Assembly (NCBI GenBank): GCA_039819545.1
Contig: JBCBRS010000014.1
Coordinates: forward strand, 5,043-69,042
Length of the DNA: 64,000 nt
Direction: 5' to 3'
Origin: Pseudomonadota bacterium
GTDB lineage: Bacteria; Pseudomonadota; Alphaproteobacteria; Caulobacterales; Parvularculaceae
Shown here: piece by piece, positions 1-19,702 of the stretch
How positions within the stretch are numbered: the first letter of the stretch is position 1
Layout of the letters: each line of letters begins with the position of its first letter
Position numbers and translations under genes: made by a program
The notes under the pieces: generated by a model
Told to the model about the DNA's origin: nothing
The model's database searches: none
Seen by the model: the letters and a program-made list of their open reading frames with translations, nothing else

Positions 1-1259
1 CCATCAGGCAGGCGGGCATCGAAAACAGCGCGAGCCTGCGGCTTATCGATTTTGTAGGTCTCCATGCACCACGGCCCAAAATCCTCAAATTCCTCTGCAT
101 CGAGAAGCGTCGTGATGATCGCGTCCTGATCGTCTCGCGAAAGGTCGAACCAGACCTGCCCCCACAATTCATCCCTCATCATCATTGCGGCGGTTAAATC
201 GCCCACAAGGTGTGCACGTTTCGGTGACTCCAGATTGAATCGCTGTGAGTCTGGAATATTCAATTGTTTACGAATTGCCCTGAAAGTTCGCTGGGCGGAC
301 TTCGACGATGGCTTGCGCAAAAAGTCGATCAGTTTCCTTTGCTCATCTTGCGTCAGGAACCGGCTTTTCTCCCCAATCGCACTGGTTTGCAGATTATTTA
401 CTTCCTGCAGTATACGGAAATAATGCGTTGTTGGCATTGCTTTCGCGGCGCGAGGTTCTCTTTCAAGAAATGTACATTTGCCAGCCTGTTGCGCTTTCAG
501 GGGGCGTTGATCCTCGATGACGTGGCGCACTGTGTCGCGCGCGGCGTCTGTCATCAAGTCTGGATGATAGGCGGCCTGCGCTGTCCAGATTTCGTCAAAC
601 TCATCGAGAATAAGAGCGCGCGAGGGATAATAGTCATAGGCCATCTTTGTACCCACCATTTGGGCACGCACGCGAGCCCCAGGAAGCGCTTTGCGTTGAC
701 CGGGGGGTGAGGCGTTGTTTTCTTCCAACACGGTCAGACGTTGCTTGCCGAACAGCTCACCCAGGGTGCGCGCGCCTGATGATGTCATCTTTTCGCGCGC
801 TTTTTTGATTGCGTCGAACATTGCGCCGTCTTCGGCCTTGTCCGTTTTGCGGTTTGATTTGAAGCCCCGACGTTCCTGCAGATGAAAAAGCGCGCGCCCC
901 ACGTCGAATGGATCAAGCCGTTCATCCAGCGCGCGCGCGCGCAATATCCACGGGTCAAGAGCTTGCAGTTGTTTTCGCTCTCGGTCATCCGCGGGAAACA
1001 GGCGGGTTTCTGTCAGGACACGGAGCATAGAGCGCCCGCGCATCAAGCGTCGATCCCGATTGCGTCGGGCCGAGCGCGGCCCTCGGCGTTGCGCCGCATT
1101 AGATGATTTATCTTTTGGATTGCGCGCATCTGAAAAAATACGGACACCAAGGTCAATCAATGGGCCTGTCGATAGCGCACCGTTACCTCCATCCCGCATT
1201 TGAACAGCAGCCCAACCTAATGAATTGGTGCCAAGGTCAATTCCCAATCGGTATTTCAT
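1..1259 (-). CDS. cas9: Cas9 endonuclease, N-terminal ~419 aa of a type II-C-like protein. The ORF continues past the left window edge, so it is absent from the supplied ORF track.
   Basis: Hand translation of the minus strand from ATG (1259-1257) gives MKYRLGIDLGTNSLGWAAVQM (RuvC-I motif with catalytic Asp). It continues with the Arg-rich bridge helix AAQRRGPRSARRNRDRRLMRGRSMLRVL, then FHLQERRGFKSNRK and GKCTFLEREPRAAKAMPTTHYFRILQEVNNLQ. Order and spacing match type II-C Cas9 N-termini as I remember them. There is no stop codon down to position 1. Confidence 0.85.
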   Translation of the reverse strand, partial: MKYRLGIDLGTNSLGWAAVQMRDGGNGALSTGPLIDLGVRIFSDARNPKDKSSNAAQRRGPRSARRNRDRRLMRGRSMLRVLTETRLFPADDRERKQLQALDPWILRARALDERLDPFDVGRALFHLQERRGFKSNRKTDKAEDGAMFDAIKKAREKMTSSGARTLGELFGKQRLTVLEENNASPPGQRKALPGARVRAQMVGTKMAYDYYPSRALILDEFDEIWTAQAAYHPDLMTDAARDTVRHVIEDQRPLKAQQAGKCTFLEREPRAAKAMPTTHYFRILQEVNNLQTSAIGEKSRFLTQDEQRKLIDFLRKPSSKSAQRTFRAIRKQLNIPDSQRFNLESPKRAHLVGDLTAAMMMRDELWGQVWFDLSRDDQDAIITTLLDAEEFEDFGPWCMETYKIDKPQARAVFDARLPD

Positions 1260-1385
1260 ATTTCCCCATCGATTTCAGTATCCCGTTGTGTTCTGAGAAA
1301 GTATGGGGTATTCCTTCAACACATTTCAAGCACTCTGGATAAGTCGGACTTTCCGTTAACAAGAACGAAAGTTCACGAAATGTAA

Positions 1386-1409
1386 GGGCGAGCCACGGCT
1401 CGCCCTTTT
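1386..1409 (+). terminator. Rho-independent terminator-like hairpin upstream of and antisense to cas9
   Basis: GGGCGAGC-CACG-GCTCGCCC (8-bp GC stem, 4-nt loop) followed by TTTT at 1406-1409. The T-run exists only on the plus strand. Confidence 0.5.
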
Positions 1410-1509
1410 CCGTTATCGCGGCAATCTATCAATCGGCGCAATCTCGACGCTTCGGCTAATCGTGCGAAGCTATATTTCCGTGGCGACAGCACAAAAGGTC
1501 TGAATAGGT

Positions 1510-2016
1510 TCACGCTATTTTGTGATTGCTTATTGGTAGCTTGCTGAGAATTATTTGAAAAATTTGCAATTCAAAATCTGTATAACGGATCGAAATCATT
1601 GGCGTCCCCGACAGGATTCGAACCTGTGGCCTCCAGATTAGGAATAAGACGCTCTGTTTTACACGGCTCTGGTTGTCATCGATCGGCGCCGTTCGCGTGT
1701 CGATTGTTCCGATCGGAGCCAGCCCCAAAACAATGGCCGCCGCCATGCCGGTGAGTAATTTCAAAATAGACTTGTAGTGATCGCCAGCTCGCGAGGATCC
1801 AGCGCGCCAAATATTGAGACGTAAAAGTGCAACCTGTTCGTCTTCGCCAGCCAGTTTTGCTATCGCAATCATTGTCTCGTCTTTTGGCATAGTCCGGCCG
1901 CTTCGAAGCTGGTTTATCGGGCCGCACGTTATGCCGAGGTTCCGGGCAAGCTCTCGATCCGACTTAAAATTGCGTGCTGATTTTGCTGCATCCATGTAAT
2001 CTTGAACGGACTTCAT
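1510..2016 (-). CDS. XRE/Cro-CI-type HTH repressor of the element with a C-terminal hydrophobic helix. The ORF end is an integration artefact, because reading runs through the att core into chromosomal DNA.
   Basis: The N-terminus SDRELARNLGITCGPINQLRSGRTMPKDETMIAIAKLAG fits the HTH_XRE pattern. A hydrophobic LLTGMAAAIVLGLAPIG segment follows. AAGAGG lies upstream of the ATG at 2016. The gene is divergent from the early operon. Confidence 0.7.
   Translation of the reverse strand: MKSVQDYMDAAKSARNFKSDRELARNLGITCGPINQLRSGRTMPKDETMIAIAKLAGEDEQVALLRLNIWRAGSSRAGDHYKSILKLLTGMAAAIVLGLAPIGTIDTRTAPIDDNQSRVKQSVLFLIWRPQVRILSGTPMISIRYTDFELQIFQIILSKLPISNHKIA
1600..1645 (-). other. Displaced 3' half of tRNA-Arg(CCT): the chromosomal arm of the att site, not a complete tRNA
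   Basis: The reverse complement reads ATTCCTAATCTGGAGGCCACAGGTTCGAATCCTGTCGGGGACGCCA. That is anticodon loop, variable region, T-arm ACAGG/CCTGT, acceptor 3' strand CGGGGAC, then G and CCA. No D-arm or 5' acceptor strand follows. Confidence 0.8.
1630..1645. repeat. att core copy 1 (CCTCCAGATTAGGAAT)
   Basis: 16-bp exact direct repeat of 15073-15088. Sequence identity stops on both sides of the core. Confidence 0.85.
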
Positions 2017-2121
2017 ATTAACCTCTTGTTAACCATTCGAGCCAGATGGTGCTTGAAACGCCTCGCAAATCACTTTGGTGGTTCACGAGGCGGATCGAAA
2101 ACCGGAGGCTCTTACGTGACG

Positions 2122-2391
2122 TTATCCAACCCAATATACCAAAAACGTACCCACCAGGCCCGCCAGCCCGATAAGGCCAGTGTGCGTGTTTGCCCATTGG
2201 CTGATCATCGGTATGCAGCGCGATTGCGTCGGCGCCGGGCGCCACGGGGCCACAAGTTTCGTTTCATGCGGCCGCCAGTCCTGCGGGCCTGCGGTCACGG
2301 GTTCGGTGGGAATAGTAATGACTTTGGGCGCGCCTGGCCTGTCGTCCGGGCACGCGTCGATGACGGCCCGCTTTACGCTTACATTGTGCAT
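2122..2391 (-). CDS. Possible small tail-anchored membrane protein upstream of the repressor (the start could be 2514 instead)
   Basis: The ORF has fairly GC-rich third positions and a C-terminal LIGLAGLVGTFLVYWVG helix. The long version would abut the plus-strand early gene start, so the internal ATG is preferred. No recognisable family. Confidence 0.25.
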   Translation of the reverse strand: MHNVSVKRAVIDACPDDRPGAPKVITIPTEPVTAGPQDWRPHETKLVAPWRPAPTQSRCIPMISQWANTHTGLIGLAGLVGTFLVYWVG

Positions 2392-2516
2392 AGGTTTTTG
2401 TGCATGTCCTTTGCCGGTGTTGGCGTCGCCGGTGGTGGGGTGCGACCCGCCACCGGCACTCAATTTCGAAACGATAGGCCGGACTCGGCAAAAAATGCAA
2501 GCCGGAGGGCTCATTG

Positions 2517-2894
2517 ATGACCCCCGTTGTCTTGCTCTTCGCGGCCGCCGTCCTGTTTCTGATCCTAATCGCGCGCCGCAATGCGCGCCTTAAATTCCGC
2601 TCGCTGCGCTTGACCAGTTCGCTCTCCGGCGTTCGTGATGTGCGGGCGGAACGCACCGGTGGCGATGTAAGAGCCGCCGCCGGTGCACCCTTTATCCCCC
2701 CCGCCGCTGGCGCTGATGGTCGGGCGGCCTATCCAGGCCCCCCGGCCGTCATGCTGGTGGAAGTTGAGTGCATATCGTGCGGCAAGCCGACCCGGTTTCC
2801 TCACACCTTCCCCGTTTCAGCTGCTGCGCAAATAGTCTGTCCCCATTGCGGCGCGCGCGGCTTTGAAGTTGTCGTCCGGGAAATGGCCGCATGA
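2517..2894 (+). CDS. Early protein with N-terminal TM helix and C-terminal CxxC...CxxC zinc ribbon
   Basis: GGAGGG lies 7 nt upstream of the ATG at 2517. Hydrophobic segment VVLLFAAAVLFLILIA, then ECISCGK...VCPHCG. Confidence 0.5.
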   Translation: MTPVVLLFAAAVLFLILIARRNARLKFRSLRLTSSLSGVRDVRAERTGGDVRAAAGAPFIPPAAGADGRAAYPGPPAVMLVEVECISCGKPTRFPHTFPVSAAAQIVCPHCGARGFEVVVREMAA

Positions 2895-3097
2895 CCATAT
2901 CGATCTTGATGCTGACCTTTCACGCCATTGTTGCTCTCGCGTTTTCATGGGTCATGCTGAACGCCATTTTTCGGAAACGATGGTGGGGCATGGTGCTGAT
3001 ATCGGCTTGGGCCGTGTGTGTCCTGTCCACGCTAAATTGGGTCGAGGTCGTTTTTGGCTTTGGAATGTTTCAGCAAGTGATCTGCGGTGCTTCATGA
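2891..3097 (+). CDS. Small early membrane protein (2 predicted TM helices)
   Basis: ATGA overlap with the preceding ORF. Hydrophobic segments ILMLTFHAIVALAFSWVML and MVLISAWAVCVLSTL. Confidence 0.45.
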   Translation: MTISILMLTFHAIVALAFSWVMLNAIFRKRWWGMVLISAWAVCVLSTLNWVEVVFGFGMFQQVICGAS

Positions 3098-3594
3098 TTG
3101 ATTTGTTTCAAGAATTGGCTACGTGCCGGTTTGGTCAGCCTGATGTTGTTGATATCTCAAGACCAGTAGGTGAGGCGCTTTGGTTTATCCAAGATCATCC
3201 GCATTCAGAAATATACGCTGAAGCAACCGGGCGGCCTGACAAAATCTATCGTGTGCTTTCACGCTATCGCCACAAATTGGACAATCGCTCTTATGGGCGT
3301 TGGGTTGAGGCGAACGGGTTGCTTGATCTGGCAAGAATGATTGCTGTCACTGAACAATCTGGGCCGGGTGGTGAGGGCGGATTGCGCCTAGAGGATGTGT
3401 CGGTTTTTGTGGTCGGCGTCTATGAGGCGCCGCGCCGCAAGCCAGTCGTTCTTTCGGAAGAGGAGGCGCTAGCGCAGTCGCAACAAGAGCGTGAGCGCTG
3501 GTGGAAAGAATACGGCGTAAGCGGATTAACGGACCAGCAAAAGCAAGAGCGCTTTGATACGTGGGCGGAAAGACAGGTGAGAAATGATGCCTAG
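3095..3594 (+). CDS. Hypothetical early protein (166 aa from the internal ATG of ORF 2863..3594)
   Basis: The ATG at 3095 overlaps the stop of the preceding ORF. No recognisable motif. Confidence 0.45.
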
Positions 3595-3802
3595 TTGCGA
3601 TAAATGCCAGTTTTTTACTGCGGCGCACTTTGATGAATTTACAGAAAAGTGCGTTGCTGGTTTTTGCCGCGCAAGGCCACCAATTTCCTCCGGCCACGGT
3701 GAGTTAATTAAGCTGGACAACGGACAATACGGCTTTGAGGGCGTGTTTCCGATTGTAATGTCAAATAATCACTGCGGCTACTTTAGAAAAAAGGTAATAT
3801 GA
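3584..3802 (+). CDS. Small Cys-rich early protein (72 aa)
   Basis: Overlaps its neighbours at both ends. Contains CDKC...C...C...HC; unknown family. Confidence 0.45.
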   Translation: MMPSCDKCQFFTAAHFDEFTEKCVAGFCRARPPISSGHGELIKLDNGQYGFEGVFPIVMSNNHCGYFRKKVI

Positions 3803-4026
3803 TGAACTTTGACAAAGCCACTGTAAGTCATGATGTGAATGGTATTGAGTTATTATACACAAAAGATGGAAGTGTTTTTGGTATTCAGGCTTTGGGGGCT
3901 GATGATCTTCGCCATGTGCTTTGTACCAAGCTTTGGGCGTCGGCACTCATTGAGATGGTCTGCGGCGCTGCCAATTACCTTCGCCAGTCCGGGCAACCTG
4001 GCATCATTACGTTGATGATCGATTGA
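3799..4026 (+). CDS. Small hypothetical early protein (75 aa)
   Basis: ATGATGA overlap with the upstream ORF. No motif recognised. Confidence 0.4.
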   Translation: MMNFDKATVSHDVNGIELLYTKDGSVFGIQALGADDLRHVLCTKLWASALIEMVCGAANYLRQSGQPGIITLMID

Positions 4027-4238
4027 CCGCCCGCGTTGGACATATAGACCCTGAAAAGCACCCGTGTTTTCAAACGCTGATCGCAATCCAGCTGCTGAAT
4101 AAGGCTGGTGTTGAATGTCTTTTTCAATCGCATTTAGTGCGCATTTCTCGGGATCTGGGGCTCATAGAGCGTTCCGATACGCTTCCGTGTGGCTGGAAAA
4201 TTACTGCCACCGGCATCGACGTTCTGACGTCGTATTAG
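4023..4238 (+). CDS. Small winged-helix-like DNA-binding protein (71 aa)
   Basis: LVRISRDLGLIERSDTLPCGWKITATGIDVL resembles the recognition helix plus wing of MarR/PadR-type wHTH proteins. TTG start overlaps the upstream stop. Confidence 0.45.
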   Translation: MTARVGHIDPEKHPCFQTLIAIQLLNKAGVECLFQSHLVRISRDLGLIERSDTLPCGWKITATGIDVLTSY

Positions 4239-4255
4239 AGGTTGGAGCCGGTCAC

Positions 4256-5623
4256 TTGATAGAAACGCAAATAGAGTTACCCCCCCTACCCGAAACGAAC
4301 CCGCAAACGTGGGAGAGGATATCATCCCGCGACACGTCTGATGCCGAGGCGCACCAGGCCCGTGATGCTCGCGTGAAGCGCCGCGACAGTCGCAATGATC
4401 GATATCGCCTTCGAAAGACCGCCGGGCGGCTCATGGGAGGGCGAGTGGCGCAATGCGGCTGTACCAGGCACCATTCGCACGTCGAAATCTGGCGCTCGAA
4501 AACGGGAGGCGGCAAAGCTGAATTTCGTGGGCTGACCACATGCGGCTCGATTTGGTCTTGTCCTGTCTGTGCGGGAAAAATAGCCGCAAAGCGCGCTGGG
4601 GAGGTCGCCAGCCTCGTGCGGGCCCACGAGAAGGCGGTCTACGCTGCTCATGAAAGCCGGGAGGCCTGTACCTTCATGGCGACCCTTACGCTGAAACATC
4701 ACGTCCGAATGGGAGCCAAGAACACGCGGGACACCGTGGCGGTTGCGTGGCGAAACATGCAAGCCGGGGCACCCTGGGTGCGGCTGAAAGGCCGGTATGG
4801 GATCATCGGCATGGTACGCGCCCTGGAAGTCACCCACGGGGGCAATGGCTGGCACCCGCACCTTCACGTCTTGATCATGACCGATCAACCGCTGACTGAT
4901 GGCGAGCGCGAAGCCATGGCGGATGAAATCTATGCCCGCTGGGAGACCAAAGTCGAAAAGCTTGGCCATAGCTGCACGCGTGACGGTTTTGATCTGCGCA
5001 CCTGCCGGGGCCGCACTGGTGCCGCCGAATACGTCGCGAAATGGGGAGCCGGTGCTGAAATTGCCAAAGGCGCGTCGAAGGAGGCAAAGTCGGGCTCCCG
5101 CTCCCCCTGGCAATTTCTGCGGGCCTATCAACGCGGCAACCGCAAGGCTGGTGCGCTGTTTGCCGAGTATGCGAAGGCTTTCAAAGGCGCGCGGCACCTG
5201 ACGTACACGTCTCAAATTCGCGAGCGCTACGGCCTGCGCGAGACGGCCGATGCTGACCTAGCCGCGCAGTCTGAAATCGAAGTCGGCGAGACCCCGGAGT
5301 TGTGCATCGCGCTGTCCCCTGGGGCGTGGTTCGAAGTGTGCGCCCGCGAGGGGCAGAACGGCATGACCCTGCAGGCCGAAATCCTCTACGCGGCTGAAAT
5401 CGGTGGAAAGGATGCGGTTCTTGCCATTCTGATCCGTGAAGGCATTGACCCCGATCTGCCCCGGTCCTGGAAACCGCCCGGCACCAAAGGGTGGCGACCC
5501 TACACCGTTCCGAAATCGCAGCGCGATGAAGCCCGCGAAGCCGGTTTCCGAAAAACCTATCCACAATTTTGGGAGCGGTTCACCGCCACCACCACCGATC
5601 ACGCGTCGACCCATTGGAAATGA
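4256..5623 (+). CDS. HUH rolling-circle replication initiator (pC194/pUB110-pIJ101-like motif set) with an N-terminal zinc finger. The ORF-track start at 4115 is an alternative.
   Basis: Zinc-finger CGSIWSCPVCAGK; motif 1 FMATLTLKH; motif 2 HPHLHVLI (HUH); motif 3 AEYVAKWG (catalytic Tyr plus Lys). The TTG at 4256 has GGAG 8 nt upstream and avoids a 124-nt overlap with the preceding gene. Confidence 0.8.
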   Translation: MIETQIELPPLPETNPQTWERISSRDTSDAEAHQARDARVKRRDSRNDRYRLRKTAGRLMGGRVAQCGCTRHHSHVEIWRSKTGGGKAEFRGLTTCGSIWSCPVCAGKIAAKRAGEVASLVRAHEKAVYAAHESREACTFMATLTLKHHVRMGAKNTRDTVAVAWRNMQAGAPWVRLKGRYGIIGMVRALEVTHGGNGWHPHLHVLIMTDQPLTDGEREAMADEIYARWETKVEKLGHSCTRDGFDLRTCRGRTGAAEYVAKWGAGAEIAKGASKEAKSGSRSPWQFLRAYQRGNRKAGALFAEYAKAFKGARHLTYTSQIRERYGLRETADADLAAQSEIEVGETPELCIALSPGAWFEVCAREGQNGMTLQAEILYAAEIGGKDAVLAILIREGIDPDLPRSWKPPGTKGWRPYTVPKSQRDEAREAGFRKTYPQFWERFTATTTDHASTHWK

Positions 5624-5624
5624 T

Positions 5625-6044
5625 ATGAAGCCCCCTAGCGGAACCCATCTTTTGTACACCGAATGCCCCGAATGCAGCGCGCGCGTGAGTGTGCGGCGTA
5701 CAAAGACAAACCGGCTCTTGTGGTCCTGCAATGGCGTTGCCGATCCCCACGGCCGCCGGTGCGGCGCGCTCCACACCTACGGAAACATCCTTACCGCTCA
5801 AATTATCAAAGAGGTCGAAAATGACGGACACGGACAAGATCAAGAACATGCTGCAACAAGGAGCGTCCCCGCAAGCCGTGACGGCAGCGCAAGTGGACAA
5901 GGTGAAGGCAAAAGTGACATCCACCCAGGAAGCGAACCAGCAACCACAACCGAGCCCGTCGCCACAGCCGCAACCCCAGCCGACACCCCAATCGACACCA
6001 AGCCCGGAAGTAAACCAAAACCCGGAATTCTCGAACCCTGGTGA
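5625..6044 (+). CDS. Small zinc-ribbon protein. The 3' part overlaps the next gene and may be a spurious extension.
   Basis: MKPPSGTHLLYTECPECSARVSVRRTKTNRLLWSCNG...RRCG. After about 5820 the other reading frame has the more GC-rich third positions. Confidence 0.4.
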   Translation: MKPPSGTHLLYTECPECSARVSVRRTKTNRLLWSCNGVADPHGRRCGALHTYGNILTAQIIKEVENDGHGQDQEHAATRSVPASRDGSASGQGEGKSDIHPGSEPATTTEPVATAATPADTPIDTKPGSKPKPGILEPW

Positions 6045-6507
6045 TGACGATTTGATAATTGGGCTGGACGGCTTTGCCCAAGAGCCTGGCGCCGATCCGC
6101 TGGATGCTGGCCCTAAGTTCGTTTCAACCGCTGAGTTTTACCAGTCGTTCTGCGGGCTCTTTCAAATGATGCATATGGGCATCGCTTCGCAGACTGGCAT
6201 CACGCTTGATGCGTTGGCGGTCGAAAACAACCCGGGCACGCGCGGCGCGTCTGATGCGCTGTATCGTATCTGCGAGCGTGTCCATTTTCTCCGGCCTATT
6301 ATTAGTGAGGAAACAGGCCTTGCTCGCGATGCGTTCACGGTGCTGATGTTTGGCGGCACTATTGCCTATGCGGCGTCGGCTGAATTCCAGGCAAAGCGGC
6401 CGTCATTGCCACCGGTGCTCAATGCTGAGACCGACGCCACGCCAAGCCCGCCACCTGGTCCCGATGCTTCACCGGCAGCACCGACAAGCCCGCAATTCAG
6501 CCTGTGA
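5821..6507 (+). CDS. Hypothetical protein with a Pro/Gln-rich linker (228 aa)
   Basis: AAAGAGG lies upstream of the ATG at 5821. Contains QQPQPSPSPQPQPQPTPQSTPSPE, followed by a globular C-terminal half. The stop overlaps the ATPase start. Confidence 0.55.
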   Translation: MTDTDKIKNMLQQGASPQAVTAAQVDKVKAKVTSTQEANQQPQPSPSPQPQPQPTPQSTPSPEVNQNPEFSNPGDDDLIIGLDGFAQEPGADPLDAGPKFVSTAEFYQSFCGLFQMMHMGIASQTGITLDALAVENNPGTRGASDALYRICERVHFLRPIISEETGLARDAFTVLMFGGTIAYAASAEFQAKRPSLPPVLNAETDATPSPPPGPDASPAAPTSPQFSL

Positions 6508-7172
6508 GTGCCGGCACTGCCATTGTCCGTTGTGTCTACGGTGTGCGCGGCGGCGGTAAGTCAACGCTCGCGCGCCACCTGGTCGCCAATGACGCGCGCG
6601 TTATCGCCTTTGATCCCCAGCGCGATTATCAGGGGGAGGCCTGGCGCGTTGCCACCACCCGGTCTGAAATCATCGCTGCGCTGAAATCGGAGGGCCTTTC
6701 CCGGTTTCGAATATCGTATTGCTTTGATACCGGAACCACTGATCCCGTTTCCGAAATGGTATGGCTTGCCGATGTCATCGCCCACCTCCAAAAAAAATAT
6801 AGATCGGACGGTATCGGTCTGTCCCTAGTCGTTGATGAGGCGCATGAGGCTTTTCCAAACCGCCCGCTCTCAAAAGACGAAGGCCCGCTCCGGCGTCTCG
6901 TGATGCAAGGCCGTCACCTGGGCGTGGGGCTCACTGTAGTGACACAACGGCCTGCCAACATCTCCACCATGATTAGATCGCAGGCAACCGAGGTTTACGC
7001 GCTGGCCTTGTCGCGGCGTGATGATCGCGTCGCCGCGGCGGATTTGCGCGAGGGCGCGGCCCCAGCTGTTGCATCTCTTTCCGGCTATGACTTTGTAAAA
7101 ATCACGCCGCAAGGGCATTCTGTGTGCCGATTGTCCCTGGAAACCGGGGAAATCCGCGCAATTACCCAATAA
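6504..7172 (+). CDS. FtsK/HerA-type P-loop ATPase, likely genome-packaging ATPase (222 aa)
   Basis: Walker A GVRGGGKST, Walker B LSLVVDEAHE, and VTQRPANIS (an FtsK-like motif). The small size and lack of a TM helix fit the PRD1/PM2 P9 class rather than the inovirus Zot class. Confidence 0.7.
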   Translation: MSAGTAIVRCVYGVRGGGKSTLARHLVANDARVIAFDPQRDYQGEAWRVATTRSEIIAALKSEGLSRFRISYCFDTGTTDPVSEMVWLADVIAHLQKKYRSDGIGLSLVVDEAHEAFPNRPLSKDEGPLRRLVMQGRHLGVGLTVVTQRPANISTMIRSQATEVYALALSRRDDRVAAADLREGAAPAVASLSGYDFVKITPQGHSVCRLSLETGEIRAITQ

Positions 7173-7242
7173 AATACCCTTACCAAATACCCCTACCCAG
7201 AATTTCTTGCGTTCTCGCGCGGCGTGCGCGCCATATCCCGCC

Positions 7243-7368
7243 ATGAACAACGCTTCAAAAATTGTCCAATTCCTCGCGATTGTCATCGCTGGGCATCTGG
7301 CCGTCGAGTTCATCGCCAAGCCGTTGGTGATGAGTATTCGCAATAATTCTGAGGACCAACCATCATGA
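7243..7368 (+). CDS. 41-aa single-TM protein (below the ORF-track size cutoff)
   Basis: MNNASKIVQFLAIVIAGHLAVEFIAKPLVMSIRNNSEDQPS. ATGA coupling to the next ORF. Confidence 0.45.
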   Translation: MNNASKIVQFLAIVIAGHLAVEFIAKPLVMSIRNNSEDQPS

Positions 7369-7496
7369 AATCATCCATCAAAATGATCGCCTACGCCGCC
7401 ATAGGTACCTATCTCGCGGGCTTTATCCTCGCGGCCACATACCGAATGCCTGGCCTGAAAACCGCCAGCGATGGTTTTAACGGTCGCGGCATCTAA
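7365..7496 (+). CDS. 43-aa single-TM protein (below the ORF-track size cutoff)
   Basis: MKSSIKMIAYAAIGTYLAGFILAATYRMPGLKTASDGFNGRGI. Confidence 0.45.
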   Translation: MKSSIKMIAYAAIGTYLAGFILAATYRMPGLKTASDGFNGRGI

Positions 7497-7532
7497 ACCG
7501 CACCTGTCAGTACACAGACAAGGAACAAAAAC

Positions 7533-8450
7533 ATGAGTGAAACGGTAGCTGCGGTCACCCCGTTAACCCAGGCGTCGTACCGGGACCATATCTTTCCCGA
7601 CTTTGAAAACGTCGCGCCTGGCGATACGGCCACCATGCGAGAGCAACGCGGGTACATGTACCATTACGTTGACCTCAAATTGTCAGGCGGCTTGCTACCG
7701 TCTCACCTGTCAAACATCCGCGTGAAGGTTTCCGATACGGAAATTTATACAAGCCTTCGCGGCGCTGATCTTGATGTCGTCAACTTCTTTCACGGCTTTG
7801 ATGACGCCGAAACGGTCGCTACAGTGCGCATCCCGTTCGCCGCGCCTGGGCTTAAAAACCCGCTTGATGAAATCGAAACCTCGCTCAATATCCAGGTTCC
7901 CGATCCCGTGACCGGCGTTGTCTTTACGCACTTCGACGTCGAGGTCGATATCGCCGACAATGCACCGGCAACCGCGCGTCTCAAAGCCGTTGGTGCCCGT
8001 CAAGCGGCCGCTCTTAACATCGGCCCTGGTATCGTTCGCCAAATGCGCGCCTATCGCCAGCTCATTCCGGCGGAAGGTGAATTTACAATGCGCGATATCG
8101 TGACGCCTGGCCTGCCCATCGCATCGCGACAGTTCCTCAATGGGCTCTATATGAACATCGACCCCCGCAATGTTCGTGAAATCATCCTTACCCGGAGCGG
8201 GCGGCAAGAATTCCGTCTTGATCCCATTCAGAACGAAATCAACCAGCGCGCGCTTGGTAAAAAGCCGGTCGCAAACTGGACAATCATTGATTTTCGAAAA
8301 GAAGGCCTGGGTTATTCTGGCGTCGATTTGCGCCAGCAAACCAACGACTTTGACTTGCGAGTGCAAGTGCAAAACCGGCCCGATGGTACGGTTCCGCCTA
8401 ATAGCTTCCGCTATCTCACTGACATGACGGGCGTTCCTGTAATCAACTAA
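7533..8450 (+). CDS. Major capsid protein candidate (305 aa, beta-rich; suspected double jelly-roll, PM2 P2-like)
   Basis: AAGGAA lies upstream of the ATG. There is no TM segment. YVDLKLSGGLLPSHLSNIRVKVSD and the C-terminal IIDFRKEGLGYSGVDL...DLRVQV resemble my recollection of PM2 P2. The gene sits after the ATPase and before the membrane-protein genes. Confidence 0.55.
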   Translation: MSETVAAVTPLTQASYRDHIFPDFENVAPGDTATMREQRGYMYHYVDLKLSGGLLPSHLSNIRVKVSDTEIYTSLRGADLDVVNFFHGFDDAETVATVRIPFAAPGLKNPLDEIETSLNIQVPDPVTGVVFTHFDVEVDIADNAPATARLKAVGARQAAALNIGPGIVRQMRAYRQLIPAEGEFTMRDIVTPGLPIASRQFLNGLYMNIDPRNVREIILTRSGRQEFRLDPIQNEINQRALGKKPVANWTIIDFRKEGLGYSGVDLRQQTNDFDLRVQVQNRPDGTVPPNSFRYLTDMTGVPVIN

Positions 8451-8482
8451 GCGCTTTTGGGCGCATACTGAGGGTTTCTCTC

Positions 8483-8803
8483 ATGGATGAAATGAGCCGG
8501 GTTTCTGTGAAAAATGCTGTGGGAGACTTCTTCTCTGGCATTTTCACCCTGGGCGGCGGGCTGTTAACAAACGCGGCCGCCGCTGCCGGTCAACGCCTCA
8601 ATGAGGAAATCCTCGGCCGGGGCCGCGTGGGCGCTGCGCCCGATGCTAGCCAAAACCTTGATGCAACACTGTTGCAAGGTCGGCAGGGTGCCGAGCAAGG
8701 CGCACCGCTGCAACGGGGCGTCACTCTGTCCACCAATCAAATTTTAATCGGCGGCTCGCTTGCCGCTGGTCTGGTTCTAACCGTCATTATCGCGTCAAGG
8801 TAG
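8483..8803 (+). CDS. Membrane protein with C-terminal TM anchor (106 aa)
   Basis: C-terminal ILIGGSLAAGLVLTVIIASR. Confidence 0.55.
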   Translation: MDEMSRVSVKNAVGDFFSGIFTLGGGLLTNAAAAAGQRLNEEILGRGRVGAAPDASQNLDATLLQGRQGAEQGAPLQRGVTLSTNQILIGGSLAAGLVLTVIIASR

Positions 8804-8807
8804 TCTC

Positions 8808-8987
8808 ATGTTGCCATTGCCCTCTCTCGGTTTTTCTACCACGCGCATTCTTGAAGGAATGAGCGGGGAGGTAGCTTTTGGCTCTAACGTGTTCGCGCCG
8901 TTTTCCCGGTCTGGTCCATCGCCGCTAATTGTCGGCATTGTTGCGGTAGCCGCTGTTGCTGCCACGGCGCTCGTGGTGAGGTCGTAA
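8808..8987 (+). CDS. 59-aa protein with C-terminal TM anchor (below the ORF-track cutoff)
   Basis: MLPLPSLGFSTTRILEGMSGEVAFGSNVFAPFSRSGPSPLIVGIVAVAAVAATALVVRS. The stop abuts the next ATG. Confidence 0.45.
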   Translation: MLPLPSLGFSTTRILEGMSGEVAFGSNVFAPFSRSGPSPLIVGIVAVAAVAATALVVRS

Positions 8988-9734
8988 ATGCTACCGACCA
9001 TTGTAACCGGAAAAAAATCAAACAATCCCATCACGCTTGCTGAAGAACGCAATCTTAACAATGCCGTTGCGGAAGATGCCATCGGGTTGACCGTAAGCGG
9101 AATGAACGTCATTTCCATTGGTGATGAGGGCTTAATCACGCGCGCGGCCGATCTTGCCGATGATGTTTCGCGGCGCGGTTTGTCCGTTGCCGAAAACGTC
9201 GCTGACCAGGCTTTTGATCTCGGCCGTGACTTTGTGGATGCGGGCGCATCCGCCGTACGCGATGCGGGCCGCATCGGCCTAGAAGGTGTGCAGTCCTCGG
9301 CTGATCTTGCCTTCATGGGGCTTTCGGAGGCCACCGGTCTAAGTGCTCGCTCTTTGCGCGAGGCAAGCGAAATCGCCCGCGATGCCGTTGATCGCAGCGC
9401 GGAAATTTCCTTTGCTGGTCTGCGTGAGGCGCAAGCCCTGGGCCGTGAGGGGCTGGGCGTCGCCGGTGATGCATTCCGCACCACCACCGAGAATAACCGC
9501 ACCGCTTTCGAGTTTGGGGCTCTGGCGCTACAGACAACCGCCGACGTCGCCCGCGATGCGGTCGAAGCAAGCGAACAATCGTCATCTGGTGCGTTCAACC
9601 TGGGCAATATCCGCTCGCAAGTGCCCGCCGAGACAATTAGCGCGCAAAGTGCAAACACTGGCACCGTCGTTGTTATCGGTGCGGTCGTTGCCGTTGTTGC
9701 CGTCACTTTCATGCTGACGCGGGGGCGCTCGTGA
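8988..9734 (+). CDS. Ala/Asp/Arg-rich helical repeat protein with C-terminal TM anchor (248 aa)
   Basis: Recurrent A-x-D-x-A/G-R periodicity. C-terminal VVVIGAVVAVVAVTFML. Confidence 0.6.
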   Translation: MLPTIVTGKKSNNPITLAEERNLNNAVAEDAIGLTVSGMNVISIGDEGLITRAADLADDVSRRGLSVAENVADQAFDLGRDFVDAGASAVRDAGRIGLEGVQSSADLAFMGLSEATGLSARSLREASEIARDAVDRSAEISFAGLREAQALGREGLGVAGDAFRTTTENNRTAFEFGALALQTTADVARDAVEASEQSSSGAFNLGNIRSQVPAETISAQSANTGTVVVIGAVVAVVAVTFMLTRGRS

Positions 9735-10192
9735 GAATTCCCCAGGCAACAACGCTTGCCGAAATTGCTGCGCGTGGCCGTCGATCAACGGCCGCCGTCG
9801 AAGGTCGTATGCTGACAGATGGCGCAGAGCGCATGGCGTCAAATGCTGTGCGCGAAACCGTGGCTGCTGAGGCCAGGCAAGGTGCGGCGCAGATGCCGTT
9901 TCAGAACGTCGCGTCACAGCGCGGCGGGTCTGTGTTTTCCGCCGTTGCACAGCGTAGTCTTGTGCTTGCGTCAGGTCAGTCGCGCGTTGTTCGTGTTAAC
10001 TCAAGTTCGGTTCAGTATTTAGACAGTACAGTTCCCGCCGCGTTCTTGTTTGTTCGTGTCGAACAAAACGAAGAAATCCGTATGCGGCTCGGTGATGTCC
10101 TCACCTTTGGCCAGCCTTTTAAGACCATAGAAGTTCGCGCTGGGCAGGATATGGAAGTCATCATGCAGTTTGGTTTCAACGCAGAAAGGTAA
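9731..10192 (+). CDS. 153-aa protein with a beta-rich C-terminal half (possible vertex/penton protein)
   Basis: GTG start overlaps the upstream stop. The C-terminal segment RVVRVNSSSVQYLDSTVPAAFLFVRVEQNEEIRMRLGDVLTFGQPFKTIEVRAGQDMEVIMQFGF looks like a single jelly-roll-sized beta domain. The function is inference only. Confidence 0.5.
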   Translation: MRIPQATTLAEIAARGRRSTAAVEGRMLTDGAERMASNAVRETVAAEARQGAAQMPFQNVASQRGGSVFSAVAQRSLVLASGQSRVVRVNSSSVQYLDSTVPAAFLFVRVEQNEEIRMRLGDVLTFGQPFKTIEVRAGQDMEVIMQFGFNAER

Positions 10193-10196
10193 CCCC

Positions 10197-10349
10197 ATGC
10201 CCACACCGTCAACCGCCCCAGAAGAAAACGCCAAGCGTGAAAACGCAAAAGCGCAAAATCCGTCAACGCCTTCGCCGCTAATGAATGACGCGCCTGCGCC
10301 TCAATCAGGTGAGCATGGCGTTCTGAATTCCAATCCGCAAACCGACTAA
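10197..10349 (+). CDS. 50-aa Pro/Asn-rich peptide (below the ORF-track cutoff)
   Basis: MPTPSTAPEENAKRENAKAQNPSTPSPLMNDAPAPQSGEHGVLNSNPQTD. Fills the gap between flanking genes. Confidence 0.3.
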   Translation: MPTPSTAPEENAKRENAKAQNPSTPSPLMNDAPAPQSGEHGVLNSNPQTD

Positions 10350-10355
10350 AGGTCT

Positions 10356-11006
10356 TTGTTCGTGGAAATCATCATCGCCTTTTTGGTTCTGTCGTTTGCC
10401 GGTATCTTTGCGGTGCTGGAAGCGCGCGCGGCAAATGCTGCGCCGGTGCCGCGCCGTGAACCAACTCTACGGCCCGCGCCTGTTCGCGACGCGCAAGGTG
10501 ATGATGATCCACAAGCGGGCAATGGCGGTGACAGTCCTGGCACCAATATTGGGCCAGCACTTGTGTCGGCCGCCACGCGCGCTCGCGAAATTGATGTCAC
10601 CGCACGGACGTTGTGGGGTGAGGCGCGCGGTGAAGGTTCTGGCGGCATGATTGCAGTCGCGCGTGTTATTCGAAACCGTGTCTTGTCAAGTCGTTATCCG
10701 AACACGTTTGAAGCCGTCTGTATGCAGCGCTTTCAGTTTTCGGTCTGGAATGATGGCGGCGCAGCGTTGCTCGCAGTTGGTCTGTCTGATCGTGCTTTTG
10801 TTGATGCGATACGCATTGCCAGTGAGGCGGTTGACGGCACCTTGCCGCCCGATGATCGTTTCAGCCCCAACGATAATGGAGAGGTTCTCCACTATCTTAA
10901 TCCTGATCCTGCGCTTTATCCGTCGGGCCGACTTCCGTCCTGGGCCTTTGCGGCAAGCGAGGCGCATGACATTGGCCGTCACCGATTTTTAAGAGGCGTA
11001 GCATGA
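10356..11006 (+). CDS. SleB-type cell-wall hydrolase (Hydrolase_2 family) with an N-terminal membrane anchor
   Basis: ARTLWGEARGEGSGGMIAVARVIRNRV...FEAVCMQRFQFSVWND is the SleB/CwlJ-type signature. N-terminal IIIAFLVLSFAGIFAVL. Confidence 0.75.
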   Translation: MFVEIIIAFLVLSFAGIFAVLEARAANAAPVPRREPTLRPAPVRDAQGDDDPQAGNGGDSPGTNIGPALVSAATRAREIDVTARTLWGEARGEGSGGMIAVARVIRNRVLSSRYPNTFEAVCMQRFQFSVWNDGGAALLAVGLSDRAFVDAIRIASEAVDGTLPPDDRFSPNDNGEVLHYLNPDPALYPSGRLPSWAFAASEAHDIGRHRFLRGVA

Positions 11007-11332
11007 ACGAAATTGACAATATCCGCCGGGCCACAGTCACGACGATTGCGGCACCCTTTCAGTTTCTAAACGGGCTCGCAATCAATGGCGGCCGGATCCT
11101 CGGGCAAGGGCTCGATTTTAACGGCGATGGCAAAATCAATTTTAGCGATGTTGGTGCCGGTGTATCTGCCGCTGGGCGCGCAGTGACTGGCGCTGCCCGC
11201 ACGGCCGTTGAACCCGTCGCAAGGGCCGCGCGCGGTCTTGATCCTTCGCCTTCGTCGTCTCCGGTGGTGCCGCTGGCGGCCGTCGTTGCTGCCGGTGCGG
11301 CTGGTTACTTCATTTTCAAAAGGCTCAAGTAA
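11003..11332 (+). CDS. Membrane protein with C-terminal TM anchor (109 aa)
   Basis: C-terminal VVPLAAVVAAGAAGYFIF. Confidence 0.55.
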   Translation: MNEIDNIRRATVTTIAAPFQFLNGLAINGGRILGQGLDFNGDGKINFSDVGAGVSAAGRAVTGAARTAVEPVARAARGLDPSPSSSPVVPLAAVVAAGAAGYFIFKRLK

Positions 11333-11481
11333 TGGTTCTTTTAATTCGTGGACTGACCATCGTAGGCGGTACTATCCTGGGTTTTCTCGGTATTGGTGCA
11401 ATCTCCCAAACCGAACAACTTTTGCGCGCCGCTGTGCCTGTCATGTTGATTGGCGGAACGCTCTACCTGATCTCGCGTTAA
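11332..11481 (+). CDS. 49-aa two-TM protein (below the ORF-track cutoff)
   Basis: MVLLIRGLTIVGGTILGFLGIGAISQTEQLLRAAVPVMLIGGTLYLISR. TAATG overlap with the upstream ORF. Confidence 0.45.
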   Translation: MVLLIRGLTIVGGTILGFLGIGAISQTEQLLRAAVPVMLIGGTLYLISR

Positions 11482-11498
11482 TCTGAGGAGTACCGGCA

Positions 11499-13241: not shown

Positions 13242-13244
13242 TCC

Positions 13245-13541
13245 GTGCCCGTCGAAACGCTTCCCCGCTCCACGTTCCGTCCCGATTTTATTGCGGTCAT
13301 CGTCGCAATGGGCGCGCACCTGGCCGCATCTGCCTTTTGGGCTGGTCAAATTGGGGCCCAAGTAAGCGCGGTTCAGGACCGCATAGATAATGCCGTATCG
13401 CCAATGGCGCAGCGCGTAGCGGCTACGGAAGCCGAGTTGATCCGCCGCGATGGATGGATGGGTCAAATGGAAACCCGTGCCGCAAAAATGGAAACCAGGA
13501 TCGAGGTGATCCAATCAAAACTAGAAAGGGACGTACCATGA
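13245..13541 (+). CDS. N-terminal TM plus coiled-coil protein (98 aa)
   Basis: FIAVIVAMGAHLAASAFWAG, followed by heptad-like METRAAKMETRIEVIQSKLE. Confidence 0.5.
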   Translation: MPVETLPRSTFRPDFIAVIVAMGAHLAASAFWAGQIGAQVSAVQDRIDNAVSPMAQRVAATEAELIRRDGWMGQMETRAAKMETRIEVIQSKLERDVP

Positions 13542-13807
13542 CGTTTTTTAAGAACAGACTACAAGAGGCTTCTACCTGGGCAGGCCTGCCGATGATTATG
13601 GTTGGCATTACGTCGCTACTCGGTATGGGGCAGCGCAAGGCCGAAATCGCCACCCAGGTGGGCGAACAAATTGGCGGCGCGGTTGCGTCGGGCTTGCCCT
13701 GGTGGCAAGGCGCGCTTATCGCGGGCACCGGCCTGGTCATGTCGGTTGGCCGCGAGGCCGGATCGCCTGACAAGCCCTTGCCGCCAACTGTAGGGGGTGG
13801 CCAATGA
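13538..13807 (+). CDS. Two-TM small membrane protein (89 aa, holin-like topology)
   Basis: The ATGA-coupled ATG at 13538 has AAAGGGA upstream. Hydrophobic segments WAGLPMIMVGITSLLG and WWQGALIAGTGLVMSV. Confidence 0.5.
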   Translation: MTFFKNRLQEASTWAGLPMIMVGITSLLGMGQRKAEIATQVGEQIGGAVASGLPWWQGALIAGTGLVMSVGREAGSPDKPLPPTVGGGQ

Positions 13808-13914
13808 AGGGGCGTAAGGCCAACGGCCAATTAAAAAAGGGATATCGCCTCACAAAATCTGGGGTGCGCAAAGTCACGAAAAAGCGAACCACGAAGCGCC
13901 GCCGTCGGCGATAA
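13804..13914 (+). CDS. 36-aa extremely basic peptide (below the ORF-track cutoff)
   Basis: MKGRKANGQLKKGYRLTKSGVRKVTKKRTTKRRRRR. ATGA coupling to the upstream ORF. Confidence 0.35.
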   Translation: MKGRKANGQLKKGYRLTKSGVRKVTKKRTTKRRRRR

Positions 13915-13928
13915 GAAAGGAAGATAAA

Positions 13929-14964: not shown

Positions 14965-15042
14965 ATAAGCCCCCCAAAACTATATTATGGAAGCCCGCCA
15001 TCGGGTGAGTATAGATCTGATCAATTTGACACAAAATTGAAA

Positions 15043-19682: not shown

Positions 19683-19702
19683 CGTCAGAAATCCTTTTGG
19701 TG

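Follow-up and report, generated by a model that had tools for sequence, protein, structure and literature searches.

The left end of the window (the whole 64,000-nucleotide stretch of DNA analysed here) carries the 5' part of a type II-C cas9 gene, a predicted tracrRNA gene divergent from it and a 13.4-kb element aimed at a tRNA-Arg gene, and we consider this reading very probable, with the closeness of the element to cas9 most likely incidental. Bases 1-1259 of the minus strand encode the N-terminal 419 residues of a type II-C Cas9, the gene running on past the left edge. A plus-strand tracrRNA would pair through a 40-nt anti-repeat with the CRISPR repeat of the pre-crRNA and continue into a hairpin, a linker and a terminator followed by a T-run. 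By analogy with relatives, cas1, cas2 and an array with repeats of 36 nt would be expected about 3.4-6 kb past the edge, the array being transcribed opposite to cas9 and its repeat reading on the plus strand roughly GTTGCGG..GGTCCGACTTATCCAGAGTGCTTGA. The tRNA-Arg(CCT) gene would once have stood 190 bp past the tracrRNA terminator, convergent with the tracrRNA gene. Here, a non-tailed temperate virus of 13.4 kb would have recombined within the anticodon-loop region of the tRNA via its tyrosine integrase, substituting a 3' half of its own for the original one, which stayed behind at 1600-1645.

For the annotation of the window, this means a partial cas9 at 1-1259, a tracrRNA gene at 1322-1412 and, at 1600-1645 and 15043-15119, the attL and attR sites of the 13.4-kb element (Table 1). 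The cas9 fragment is that of an ordinary type II-C cas9. What the comparison gives is a set of tracrRNA, CRISPR repeat and Cas9 for a type II-C clade of marine Hyphomonadaceae/Parvularculaceae and, as this set has covariation support and is without an Rfam family, it could serve the mining of compact Cas9 orthologues.

Table 1. Features at the left end of the window, with strand and basis of each call
Feature	Positions	Strand	Basis and remarks
Partial cas9, 5' part	1..1259	-	codons 1-419 of an expected ~1060; cut by window edge
Shine-Dalgarno-like GGGGA	1263..1267	-	putative; 4-8 nt upstream of cas9 ATG, as read off the sequence
Candidate sigma-70-like cas9 promoter, TTGAAA-18-CATACT	1300..1329	-	consensus scan 9/12; overlaps 5' end of tracrRNA gene
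Predicted tracrRNA gene, 91 nt	1322..1412	+	divergent from cas9; repeat match, synteny, covariance model
Anti-repeat CATTTCAAGCACTCTGGATAAGTCGGACTTTCCGTTAACA, 40 nt	1322..1361	+	duplex with relative's repeat
Short hairpin GAAC-GAAA-GTTC	1363..1374	+	shortened form of relatives' first tracrRNA hairpin
Terminator hairpin: 10-bp stem, CACG loop, then TTTT	1384..1410	+	alignment pairing, T-run
HTH transcriptional regulator of element, 168 aa	1510..2016	-	phrog_638 E 2.6e-20; HTH_19 below Pfam cut-off
Displaced original 3' half of tRNA-Arg(CCT), attL side	1600..1645	-	aligned to resident tRNA; core ATTCCTAATCTGGAGG at 1630-1645
Non-tailed virus-like element, 13.4 kb, PM2/autolykivirus type	1646..15072		bounded by 16-bp core repeats
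Acb2/Tad1-hairpin-domain protein, 63 aa	13929..14120	+	PF24729 57.1 bits vs cut-off 27
Tyrosine integrase of element	14110..14964	-	Phage_integrase 35.8 bits; phrog_1 E 7e-40; adjoins resident tRNA
Resident chimeric tRNA-Arg(CCT), attR	15043..15119	-	ARAGORN, Rfam tRNA 66 bits; core at 15073-15088

The cas9 fragment and its relatives

A preliminary description of this DNA had pointed to an unbroken minus-strand frame from 1259 encoding the start of a Cas9, and the frame withstood closer inspection. From 1259 to base 1, the minus strand reads through 419 codons (1257 nt) with zero stops or frameshifts, beginning with MKYRLGIDLGTNSLGWAAV. With TIGR01865, the NCBIfam equivalog model 'type II CRISPR RNA-guided endonuclease Cas9', the translation scores 252.9 bits (E 7.8e-75), exceeding the curated cut-off of 100 from an alignment that spans model positions 1-399 of 1070 alone. 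Cas9_a (Pfam PF18470, REC lobe) reaches 48.5 bits, its cut-off being 26.9. The part of the gene in view, ~39% of the whole, comprises RuvC-I and the bridge helix together with most of the REC lobe, with about 61% lying beyond the left edge. All three motifs quoted in the preliminary description are present and aligned with solved Cas9 structures, namely the RuvC-I motif IDLGTNSLGW, whose catalytic Asp is residue 8 and aligns with residue 8 of PDB Cas9 chains, the Arg-rich bridge helix AAQRRGPRSARRNRDRRLMRGR and the FHLQERRGFKSNRK segment; moreover, the bridge helix of PDB 9ar4/21dz is matched by QRRGPRSARRNRDRRLMRGR in the alignment. Judged by its sequence, the stretch from 1 to 1259 is cas9. 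Its 'hidden' status is an artefact of the ORF listing and no biological feature: only short ORFs were listed over 1-1259 because the listing omits ORFs that leave the source end. Upstream of the ATG, the scan for sigma-70-like promoters returned no more matches than shuffles did, hence the promoter given in Table 1 is a weak candidate.

In a search of the PDB, Cas9 structures aligned to the fragment from residue 1, the best matches having E-values of 1e-29 to 1e-18; the very best, 1e-29 over about 340 residues, indicates a distant relationship. Among the best structure matches are 6JDV and 5X2G, which we take to be Nme1Cas9 and CjCas9, both of type II-C; 8UZA and 9AR4 are taken as Geobacillus-type II-C enzymes. 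PDB 5AXW and 6M0V, presumably SaCas9 and St1Cas9 (both II-A), gave about 1e-9, and 7VK9, which we assume to be SpCas9, gave 0.49. By these E-values, and with the PDB entries assigned as above, the fragment appears to group with the II-C Cas9s, not with those of types II-A or II-B. The loci of relatives also agree with the II-C kind that had been proposed at the outset, this type being defined by a minimal cas9, cas1, cas2 operon without csn2 or cas4 (PMC3737331). In L001 and L018, where each gene was examined, the locus consists of cas9-cas1-cas2-array only, with no fourth gene, and the remaining arrays found in relatives sit where this order predicts, downstream of cas2, with 36-nt repeats and 29-30-nt spacers.

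The relatives themselves comprise 14 orthologues that are 54-65% identical to the fragment over all 419 aa, the nearest being uncharacterised marine Hyphomonadaceae/Parvularculaceae proteins. Searching 5.8 billion proteins with the window's cas9 gave nothing above 56% identity among the matches listed. Degenerate-peptide scans of GTDB representative genomes returned no match, and an exact 44-mer search of IMG/VR returned zero. Seven distinct relatives have an intact cas9 of 1053-1074 aa, and HNH_4 and RuvC_III are present in L018, the one of them whose domains were tested. By analogy, the unseen part of the window's cas9 would be intact, and cas1, cas2 and an array would accompany it; the remaining 62 kb of the window contain no HNH, RuvC-II/III or PAM-interacting domain and no cas1 or cas2, and a CRISPR array is found nowhere in the 64 kb.

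Were cas9 a decaying or truncated remnant, disrupted further on or with cas1, cas2 or the array lost from its locus, the prophage would lie beside a dead system and the questions of self-targeting and anti-CRISPR activity raised by the preliminary description would fall away. Such decay has parallels among the relatives, where cas9 is interrupted in three of ten distinct cases, namely by a TGA in place of the invariant Cys of HNH (L001), by a stop at codon 779 (L016) and by a frame shift with Ns in a low-coverage assembly (L010). Besides, many database matches are short 'Cas9' proteins on long contigs, and the window keeps 93% of the clade-invariant residues, whereas a leave-one-out comparison finds 95-100% of them kept in every relative. 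Given the Ns and the low coverage, however, some of the interruptions are probably assembly artefacts. The window's gene runs for 1257 nt without a stop or frameshift. Of the 128 positions invariant across the relatives it retains 119, together with the catalytic Asp and the bridge helix; most of the substitutions at the others are conservative, which fits its place as the most divergent of the group. As the tracrRNA described below also retains all conserved features, with a compensatory change in its shortened hairpin, we regard a remnant as unlikely and favour an intact type II-C gene cut by the window edge.

A predicted tracrRNA gene upstream of cas9

Of all sites in the 64 kb, the one that best matches the CRISPR repeat of a relative is located 67 nt upstream of the cas9 ATG. 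A homologous element lies upstream of cas9 in 14 of the 16 loci fetched with a 20-base pattern, at a distance from cas9 of 72-292 nt in these 14 relatives as compared to the 67 nt in the window. When a covariance model was built from 13 relatives only, leaving the window out, it matched 1322-1412 over its full length with 100.3 bits (E 3.9e-22), the sole significant match in the 64 kb. Applied to genome and JGI metagenome contigs, a tracr pattern search retrieved relatives only. Pairing of the window's anti-repeat with a heterologous repeat of the Hyphococcus type amounts to -48.2 kcal/mol in RNAduplex, as opposed to -14.7 +/- 3.1 for shuffles, and in six relatives the anti-repeat and the organism's own repeat yield the same bulged duplex at -51 to -56 kcal/mol. 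The window's anti-repeat bears two private substitutions, A7 and T19.

The alignment of the tracrRNA shows an invariant anti-repeat and two helices in which 99% of the cells are paired. Compensatory changes affect 7 of the 14 stem pairs, which was matched by none of 500 shuffles, and slid controls were at most 57% paired. In the first hairpin (columns 42-45/65-68), pairing is 100% and two of the four pairs have undergone compensatory changes, the window contributing its own A-U for G-C. In the terminator hairpin (columns 78-87/95-104; fold z-score -5.0), pairing is 98.6%, with compensatory changes in half of the ten pairs, and the T-run follows in 14/14 loci. The linker between the two hairpins, ACGAAATG, is conserved; the -10-like box of the tracrRNA gene is poor in the window (TATTCC). 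From these data, 1322-1412 is a conserved structured RNA with complementarity to a relative's repeat, and we infer that it is expressed from the plus strand as a tracrRNA. The strand is called on the T-run, 8 G.U cells and precedent. Single-sequence folding gave equal results for both strands of the region, and is uninformative on this point because the stems are symmetric. When 1200-1700 was searched against Rfam with gathering and E-value thresholds, no family came near its threshold, the best score (32 bits vs a threshold of 59) belonging to an unrelated sRNA. The tracrRNA family of this clade is represented by no Rfam model and had not been noticed in the window before.

We also considered that 1322-1412 might be a degenerate orphan repeat combined with a 5'-UTR or promoter structure of cas9, or else a bidirectional terminator shared with the tRNA. 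Such a reading could draw on the proposal of Chylinski et al. 2013 that anti-repeats may stem from degenerate repeats (PMC3737331), on the equal folding of the two strands as single sequences and on the missing Rfam tracrRNA match. It is nevertheless highly improbable, given that anti-repeat, hairpin, terminator and T-run recur at fixed spacing in 14 loci. A UTR element is disfavoured because the tracrRNA keeps its architecture while standing anywhere between 67 and 292 nt from cas9. The covariation resides in plus-strand hairpins past the anti-repeat, where the G.U pairs would be A.C on the other strand, and a bulged repeat duplex of nearly full length is typical of pre-crRNA:tracrRNA pairs. 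Finally, type II systems need a tracrRNA, and a search of locus L001 for a second anti-repeat, covering 5.8 kb that begin upstream of cas9 and reach up to the array as well as 1.9 kb past it, found none.

Guide-like RNAs (viral sgRNA/scaRNA) have recently been reported for some phages (bioRxiv 10.64898/2026.06.01.729453) and, with the tracrRNA only about 220 bp from the end of the element, one may ask if the element brought in such an RNA to subvert Cas9. Position and synteny effectively rule this out: the RNA gene falls outside the 16-bp core repeats, with the displaced tRNA half between it and the element, and its location upstream of cas9 is shared by 14 loci in whose vicinity neither such an element nor a tRNA-Arg occurs. 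In addition, the covariance model has no match inside 1646-15072.

The integrated element and its tRNA attachment site

A displaced 3' half of tRNA-Arg at 1600-1645, about 340 bp from cas9, had been noted before, and the analysis bears out both the identity of this remnant and its spacing, with 340 bp separating 1600 from the cas9 ATG at 1259. A 16-bp core is identical at 1630-1645 and 15073-15088, and the T-arm of the displaced half gives a weak Rfam tRNA match at 1611-1632. The resident tRNA, beside which the integrase is encoded, unites a 5' half from the host with a 3' half brought by the element. When the resident 5' half is instead combined with the displaced 3' half, ARAGORN recognises a perfect 77-nt tRNA-Arg(CCT) with a fully paired acceptor stem, position pair 1-72 being G1-C72 in the rebuilt tRNA vs G1.U72 in the resident chimera. 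These observations establish the att architecture. The reasoning that linked the tRNA gene with the prophage therefore holds, although the tRNA cannot have been 'directly' upstream of cas9, as the tracrRNA gene lies between them. IMG/VR was searched with either tRNA 3' half, bearing on which of the two is element-borne, and gave 0 matches each. Among the genomes searched, no related one has this synteny of tRNA and cas9. One Logan contig (L006) stops 7 nt into the att core; we rejected this end as evidence of excision, since the break falls inside the core and not at its end, and could be due to a mixed sample in which the 5' half of the tRNA is conserved.

What had been called a temperate phage is indeed an integrated element, but its type is that of a non-tailed double-jelly-roll virus resembling PM2 and the autolykiviruses. 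Pfam identifies Rep_1, the N and C domains of the PM2 P2 coat protein, an HTH regulator and the integrase, and PHROGs recognises the integrase and the ATPase, the latter being of the Zot/FtsK-like packaging kind. The coat protein is 28% identical to the double-jelly-roll capsid protein of Vibrio phage 1.249.A, the nearest catalogued phage, and the translated integrase shows the R...HxxR...Y residues. The interior of the element is 100% identical to another Logan contig (L005). Look-ups with the coat protein and the AcrB pump led only to two Logan contigs of run SRR22824285, both fragmentary and matching the window at 100% identity, neither of which reaches cas9; an exact look-up of the 168-aa HTH regulator found no match. 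Outside the element, an ORF of 1082 aa occupies 16434-19682. It was considered as a second Cas9 and rejected, being an AcrB-family pump.

On the assumption that the type II system is active, the preliminary description had asked if a temperate phage next to it is self-targeted and if it encodes anti-CRISPR activity. Comparison of 87 distinct spacers from the relatives' arrays with the window yielded a longest exact stretch of 14 of 30 nt, which is at chance level, and neither the repeat search nor the covariance model detected tracr-like or repeat-like sequence within 1646-15072. PHROGs scans of 10 ORFs and Pfam scans of 13 ORFs, mainly accessory genes of the element and covering about half of the ORFs of its structural module, gave no anti-CRISPR homologue, a negative that is weak evidence because Acr families are very diverse. 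The sole anti-defence match in these scans is the Acb2/Tad1 hairpin domain of a 63-aa protein, which matches PDB 9ptq ('Acb2 homolog 43') at E 0.002 and is a candidate anti-CBASS/anti-Thoeris sponge.

The adjacency could be functional in two ways. Spacers against the element might be tolerated thanks to an unrecognised anti-CRISPR, perhaps encoded by one of its small orphan ORFs, or the element might damp the system by its position, with read-through of the regulator gene from 2016 to 1510 crossing attL and proceeding antisense into the tracrRNA gene, towards the cas9 promoter. The regulator frame does extend into host DNA, over attL and the remnant of the tRNA, in the direction of the tracrRNA terminator, its ORF ending 98 nt from that terminator with no clear terminator between, and the element possesses both the Acb2/Tad1-like anti-defence homologue and several small ORFs without a family match. 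Its small orphan ORFs include those at 2514-2894, 3584-3802, 3799-4026 and 13245-13807. Still, we consider a functional adjacency very unlikely. Integration at a tRNA gene fully accounts for the position, no relative has a tRNA-Arg or similar element beside cas9, and the symmetric hairpin of the tracrRNA terminator could stop minus-strand transcripts too. Against it also count the lack of anti-CRISPR homologues in the scanned ORFs, of tracr-like or repeat-like sequence in the element and of any match between the relatives' spacers and the element. Since no relative carries the tRNA-Arg beside cas9, this synteny appears specific to the present genome. Nothing seen in the window shows an interaction of the element with Cas9, and the data speak neither for nor against a lysogen that lives with a self-targeting Cas9 system. 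Most likely, the closeness of the two is incidental, the element being beside cas9 because of its tRNA targeting.

Comparison with known systems

Type II CRISPR-Cas systems depend on a tracrRNA, reportedly described by Deltcheva et al. in 2011. Like the known examples, the predicted RNA is encoded beside cas9, starts with a 5' anti-repeat that would form a long bulged duplex with the repeat, and ends in 3' hairpins with an intrinsic terminator. Unlike them, it is a prediction from sequence, and its gene points away from cas9, the putative promoter regions of the two overlapping. Its first hairpin also departs from that of the relatives, in which a 4-bp outer stem surrounds 15-23 nt, whereas the window has a minimal 4-bp hairpin with a GAAA loop. 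[quoted passage not shown]

With regard to Cas9, the relatives' proteins of 1053-1074 aa, the HNH_4 and RuvC_III domains of L018 and the minimal loci L001 and L018 all conform to the definition of type II-C (PMC3737331). The fragment shares with the II-C Cas9s (Nme1Cas9, CjCas9 and the Geobacillus-type enzymes) a RuvC-I from residue 1, an Arg-rich bridge helix, the RRGF(K/R)SNRK motif and Cas9_a; it is distant from them in sequence and known here from its first 419 residues alone.

The integration site follows the P4-type use of tRNA genes, in which the integrase gene stands beside the tRNA, the element supplies the 3' tRNA segment and the displaced original is found at the far end; different classes of tRNA sublocation for integration are said to have been set out by Williams in 2002. 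In contrast to P4-type integration, only a 16-bp core in the anticodon-loop region is identical here, and the 3' segment of the element differs from that of the host at 7 of 30 positions, giving the chimera its G1.U72 pair.

As for the element, PM2-like corticoviruses and the Autolykiviridae infect marine bacteria and are non-tailed dsDNA viruses of the double-jelly-roll type. Krupovic and Bamford are said to have described PM2-like corticoviral prophages in 2007, and the Autolykiviridae were reportedly introduced by Kauffman et al. in 2018. With both groups, the element has in common the PM2 P2 coat domains, the Zot/FtsK-like ATPase, Rep_1 and a size of about 10-13 kb. It differs from them in a coat protein that is 28% identical at the nearest, in carrying an Acb2/Tad1-like gene and in being integrated at a tRNA via a tyrosine integrase.

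The cas9 fragment at the left edge and its relatives

Read from position 1259 to base 1, the minus strand of the window translates into 419 stop-free codons with the N-terminus MKYRLGIDLGTNSLGWAAV. This stretch represents the 5' portion of a cas9 gene of type II-C, accompanied by a predicted tracrRNA gene and located beside a tRNA-integrated, non-tailed prophage. The fragment matched the NCBIfam Cas9 equivalog TIGR01865 at 252.9 bits (E 7.8e-75, cut-off 100 bits, model positions 1–399 of 1070) and exceeded the Pfam Cas9_a threshold, and in a search against PDB sequences, Cas9 chains of solved structure aligned with it from residue 1. These data bear out the preliminary description, which had placed a cas9 here and pointed to a RuvC-I motif, an Arg-rich bridge helix and the FHLQERRGFKSNRK segment, each of which matches the corresponding segment of PDB Cas9 chains. 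The ORF listing over 1–1259 contains short ORFs only; the gene appeared hidden because the listing omits ORFs running off the source, and there is no biological cause.

The proposed II-C affiliation is likewise supported. The best PDB matches ranged from E 1e-29 to 1e-18, the strongest including 6JDV and 5X2G, which we take to be the II-C enzymes Nme1Cas9 and CjCas9, respectively; chains that we take to be II-A scored about 1e-9, and the presumed SpCas9 chain E 0.49. Among the matches listed from a collection of 5.8 billion proteins, the nearest was just 56% identical and resides on Tara Oceans contigs in the gene order cas9-cas1-cas2-array. Running a 20-base tracrRNA pattern on genome and JGI metagenome contigs yielded 16 further loci, the majority from marine Hyphomonadaceae, Parvularculaceae and Litorimonas MAGs, and in 14 of these, the encoded Cas9 and ours are 54–65% identical over all 419 residues. 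In seven distinct relatives, cas9 is intact and comprises 1053–1074 codons, so the visible part makes up ~39% of a clade-typical gene. In one of these (L018), a domain scan revealed HNH_4 and RuvC_III, and cas1 and cas2 alone occupy the 1.4 kb separating cas9 from the array, the same minimal cas9-cas1-cas2 operon that defines type II-C (PMC3737331). The window Cas9 retains 119 of 128 positions invariant in 12 relatives, the nine changes being mostly conservative. Within the 64-kb window, we found no cas1, cas2, Cas9 C-terminal half or CRISPR array, and no contig extending it leftwards was found in GTDB representative genomes, JGI metagenome contigs or IMG/VR.

Judging from the sequences, cas9 decay does occur in this clade. 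In the closest relative, an in-frame TGA (11840–11842 of the Tara Oceans contig L001, also present in L002 and L004) replaces an HNH cysteine that is invariant in the seven intact orthologues (VV*MFSG vs VVCVFSG). The N-terminal product ending at this TGA has been recorded from 14 contigs, and in a further variant, L003, the C-terminal half is also rearranged. The TGA-bearing gene is probably a spreading pseudogene. Two other interruptions may reflect either true decay or faulty assembly: L016 (4442–6781) has two stops directly following codon 779 on a 1.2-Mb contig, presumably a long-read assembly, and L010 (531–1791) has a frame shift with Ns in a MAG of 3x coverage.

A predicted tracrRNA gene upstream of cas9

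When the 36-nt repeat of the Tara Oceans relative was aligned to the full 64 kb, its best match fell at 1326–1349, 67 nt ahead of the cas9 start codon. In that relative, the homologous element precedes cas9 by 72 nt, and the same element occurs upstream of cas9 in 14 further loci, invariably on the cas9-sense strand. On the complementary strand, the layout is common to all copies: a weak -10-like box, a near-invariant 40-nt anti-repeat complementary to the CRISPR repeat of the clade, a hairpin, a linker (conserved as ACGAAATG), and a second, GC-rich hairpin with a T-run behind it. In the two hairpins, 99% of cells are paired, with compensatory changes in 7 of 14 pairs; none of 500 shuffles attained these values, and slid partners paired at 57% or less. 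The first hairpin of the window copy is shortened (GAAC-GAAA-GTTC), its pairing being kept through a compensatory change. For the six relatives with both RNA and array, the anti-repeat and its own repeat form a near-full-length bulged duplex of -51 to -56 kcal/mol, compared to about -16 kcal/mol for shuffled repeats, and the window anti-repeat reached -48 kcal/mol with the closest available repeat, that of a relative. A covariance model built from 13 relatives alone, leaving out the window, had its sole significant match in the 64 kb at this element (100.3 bits, E 3.9e-22), which matched no Rfam family. We conclude that the element is the predicted tracrRNA gene of the system, divergent from cas9.

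The strand assignment is less secure than the other conclusions, and the two strands could not be told apart by folding single sequences. The plus strand is favoured because the T-run is present in 14/14 loci, because eight G.U cells would be mismatched on the other strand, and because there is precedent for the array direction: in N. meningitidis and C. jejuni, transcription of the array runs counter to that of the cas operon (PMC3737331).

Of the known repeats, the closest match to the window anti-repeat is GTTGCGGTTGGTCCGACTTTTCCAGAGTGCTACAAC, from a CRISPR array of Hyphococcus sp. ECK-19 (NZ_JBEHZE010000002.1, L012:419–850). No cas9 was found within the 8 kb examined near this array, and the cas genes are therefore presumably on its other side.

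Features at the left end of the window
Feature	Position	Strand	Remarks
Predicted tracrRNA gene	1322–1412	+	divergent from cas9; covariance model, anti-repeat duplex
HTH regulator of element	1510–2016	-	
Integrated element	1646–15072		13.4 kb, PM2/autolykivirus-like
Rep_1 rolling-circle protein	4115–5623		
Zot/FtsK-like ATPase	6504–7172		
PM2-type P2 coat protein	7533–8450		
Cell-wall hydrolase, Hydrolase_2	10362–11006		
63-aa Acb2/Tad1 hairpin-domain ORF	13929–14120	+	beside integrase; PF24729 57.1 bits (cut-off 27)
Tyrosine integrase of element	14110–14964		
Resident tRNA-Arg(CCT), complete	15043–15119	-	ARAGORN and Rfam

The tRNA-Arg junctions and the integrated element

A 16-bp core, ATTCCTAATCTGGAGG, occurs at 15073–15088 in the resident tRNA-Arg and again at 1630–1645. 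Past this core, the two tRNA 3' remainders show 7 mismatches over 30 positions, the T-stem changes being compensatory. When the resident 5' half is combined with the displaced 3' half, the resulting tRNA has an acceptor stem paired throughout (G1-C72), whereas the resident gene has a G1.U72 wobble atop the stem and a different T-stem. The copy at 1600–1645 is therefore the original host half, and the resident tRNA is a host/element chimera, adjoined, as expected, by the integrase gene. The preliminary reconstruction and its integration logic hold, but the placement of the tRNA directly upstream of cas9 needs amending, as the original tRNA gene faced the tracrRNA gene convergently and lay 190 bp past the terminator of the latter. 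In none of the relatives does a tRNA-Arg adjoin cas9; the arrangement is therefore particular to the present genome, and the adjacency of element and cas9 is most simply explained by tRNA targeting.

Exact protein look-ups yielded only two Logan contigs, both fragmentary and from run SRR22824285; they match 3796–14080 (L005) and 15082–24086 (L006) at 100% identity and stop short of cas9. L006 breaks at 15082, 7 nt into the att core, and L005 ends short of the integrase on one side and of the early genes on the other; these breaks may reflect strain mixture or alternative junctions in the sample.

By its sequence, the element is of the non-tailed, PM2/autolykivirus-like temperate type and no tailed phage. 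The nearest catalogued phage by coat protein is Vibrio autolykivirus 1.249.A, whose double-jelly-roll capsid shares only 28% identity with the P2 coat protein of the element. The frame of the HTH regulator crosses attL and the tRNA remnant into host DNA, ending 98 nt from the convergent tracrRNA terminator, and its C-terminus would thus differ between integrated and excised states. On the other flank, an IS630-family transposase (15376–16372, plus strand; HTH_Tnp_IS630 and DDE_3 in two overlapping frames) sits between the tRNA-Arg and an RND efflux operon (AcrB, 16434–19682).

Anti-defence genes and the Cas9 system

Comparing 87 distinct spacers from the relatives' arrays with the window gave chance-level matches only. 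Pfam and PHROGs scans, directed mainly at the accessory ORFs of the element and covering about half of those in the structural module, revealed no anti-CRISPR family, which is weak evidence given this coverage and the great diversity of anti-CRISPR proteins. Besides the Acb2/Tad1 hairpin domain, the 63-aa ORF matches PDB 9ptq, 'Acb2 homolog 43' (E 0.002). Its product, encoded here by a non-tailed virus, is thereby a candidate sponge for cyclic nucleotides that would counter CBASS/Thoeris rather than Cas9.

A viral origin of the tracr-like RNA was considered and rejected: the RNA is located beyond the att repeats, it keeps its synteny with cas9 in loci devoid of the element, and the covariance model had no match within the element. 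In contrast to the phage-encoded sgRNAs that have been reported (bioRxiv 10.64898/2026.06.01.729453), the tracr-like RNA of the window is non-viral.
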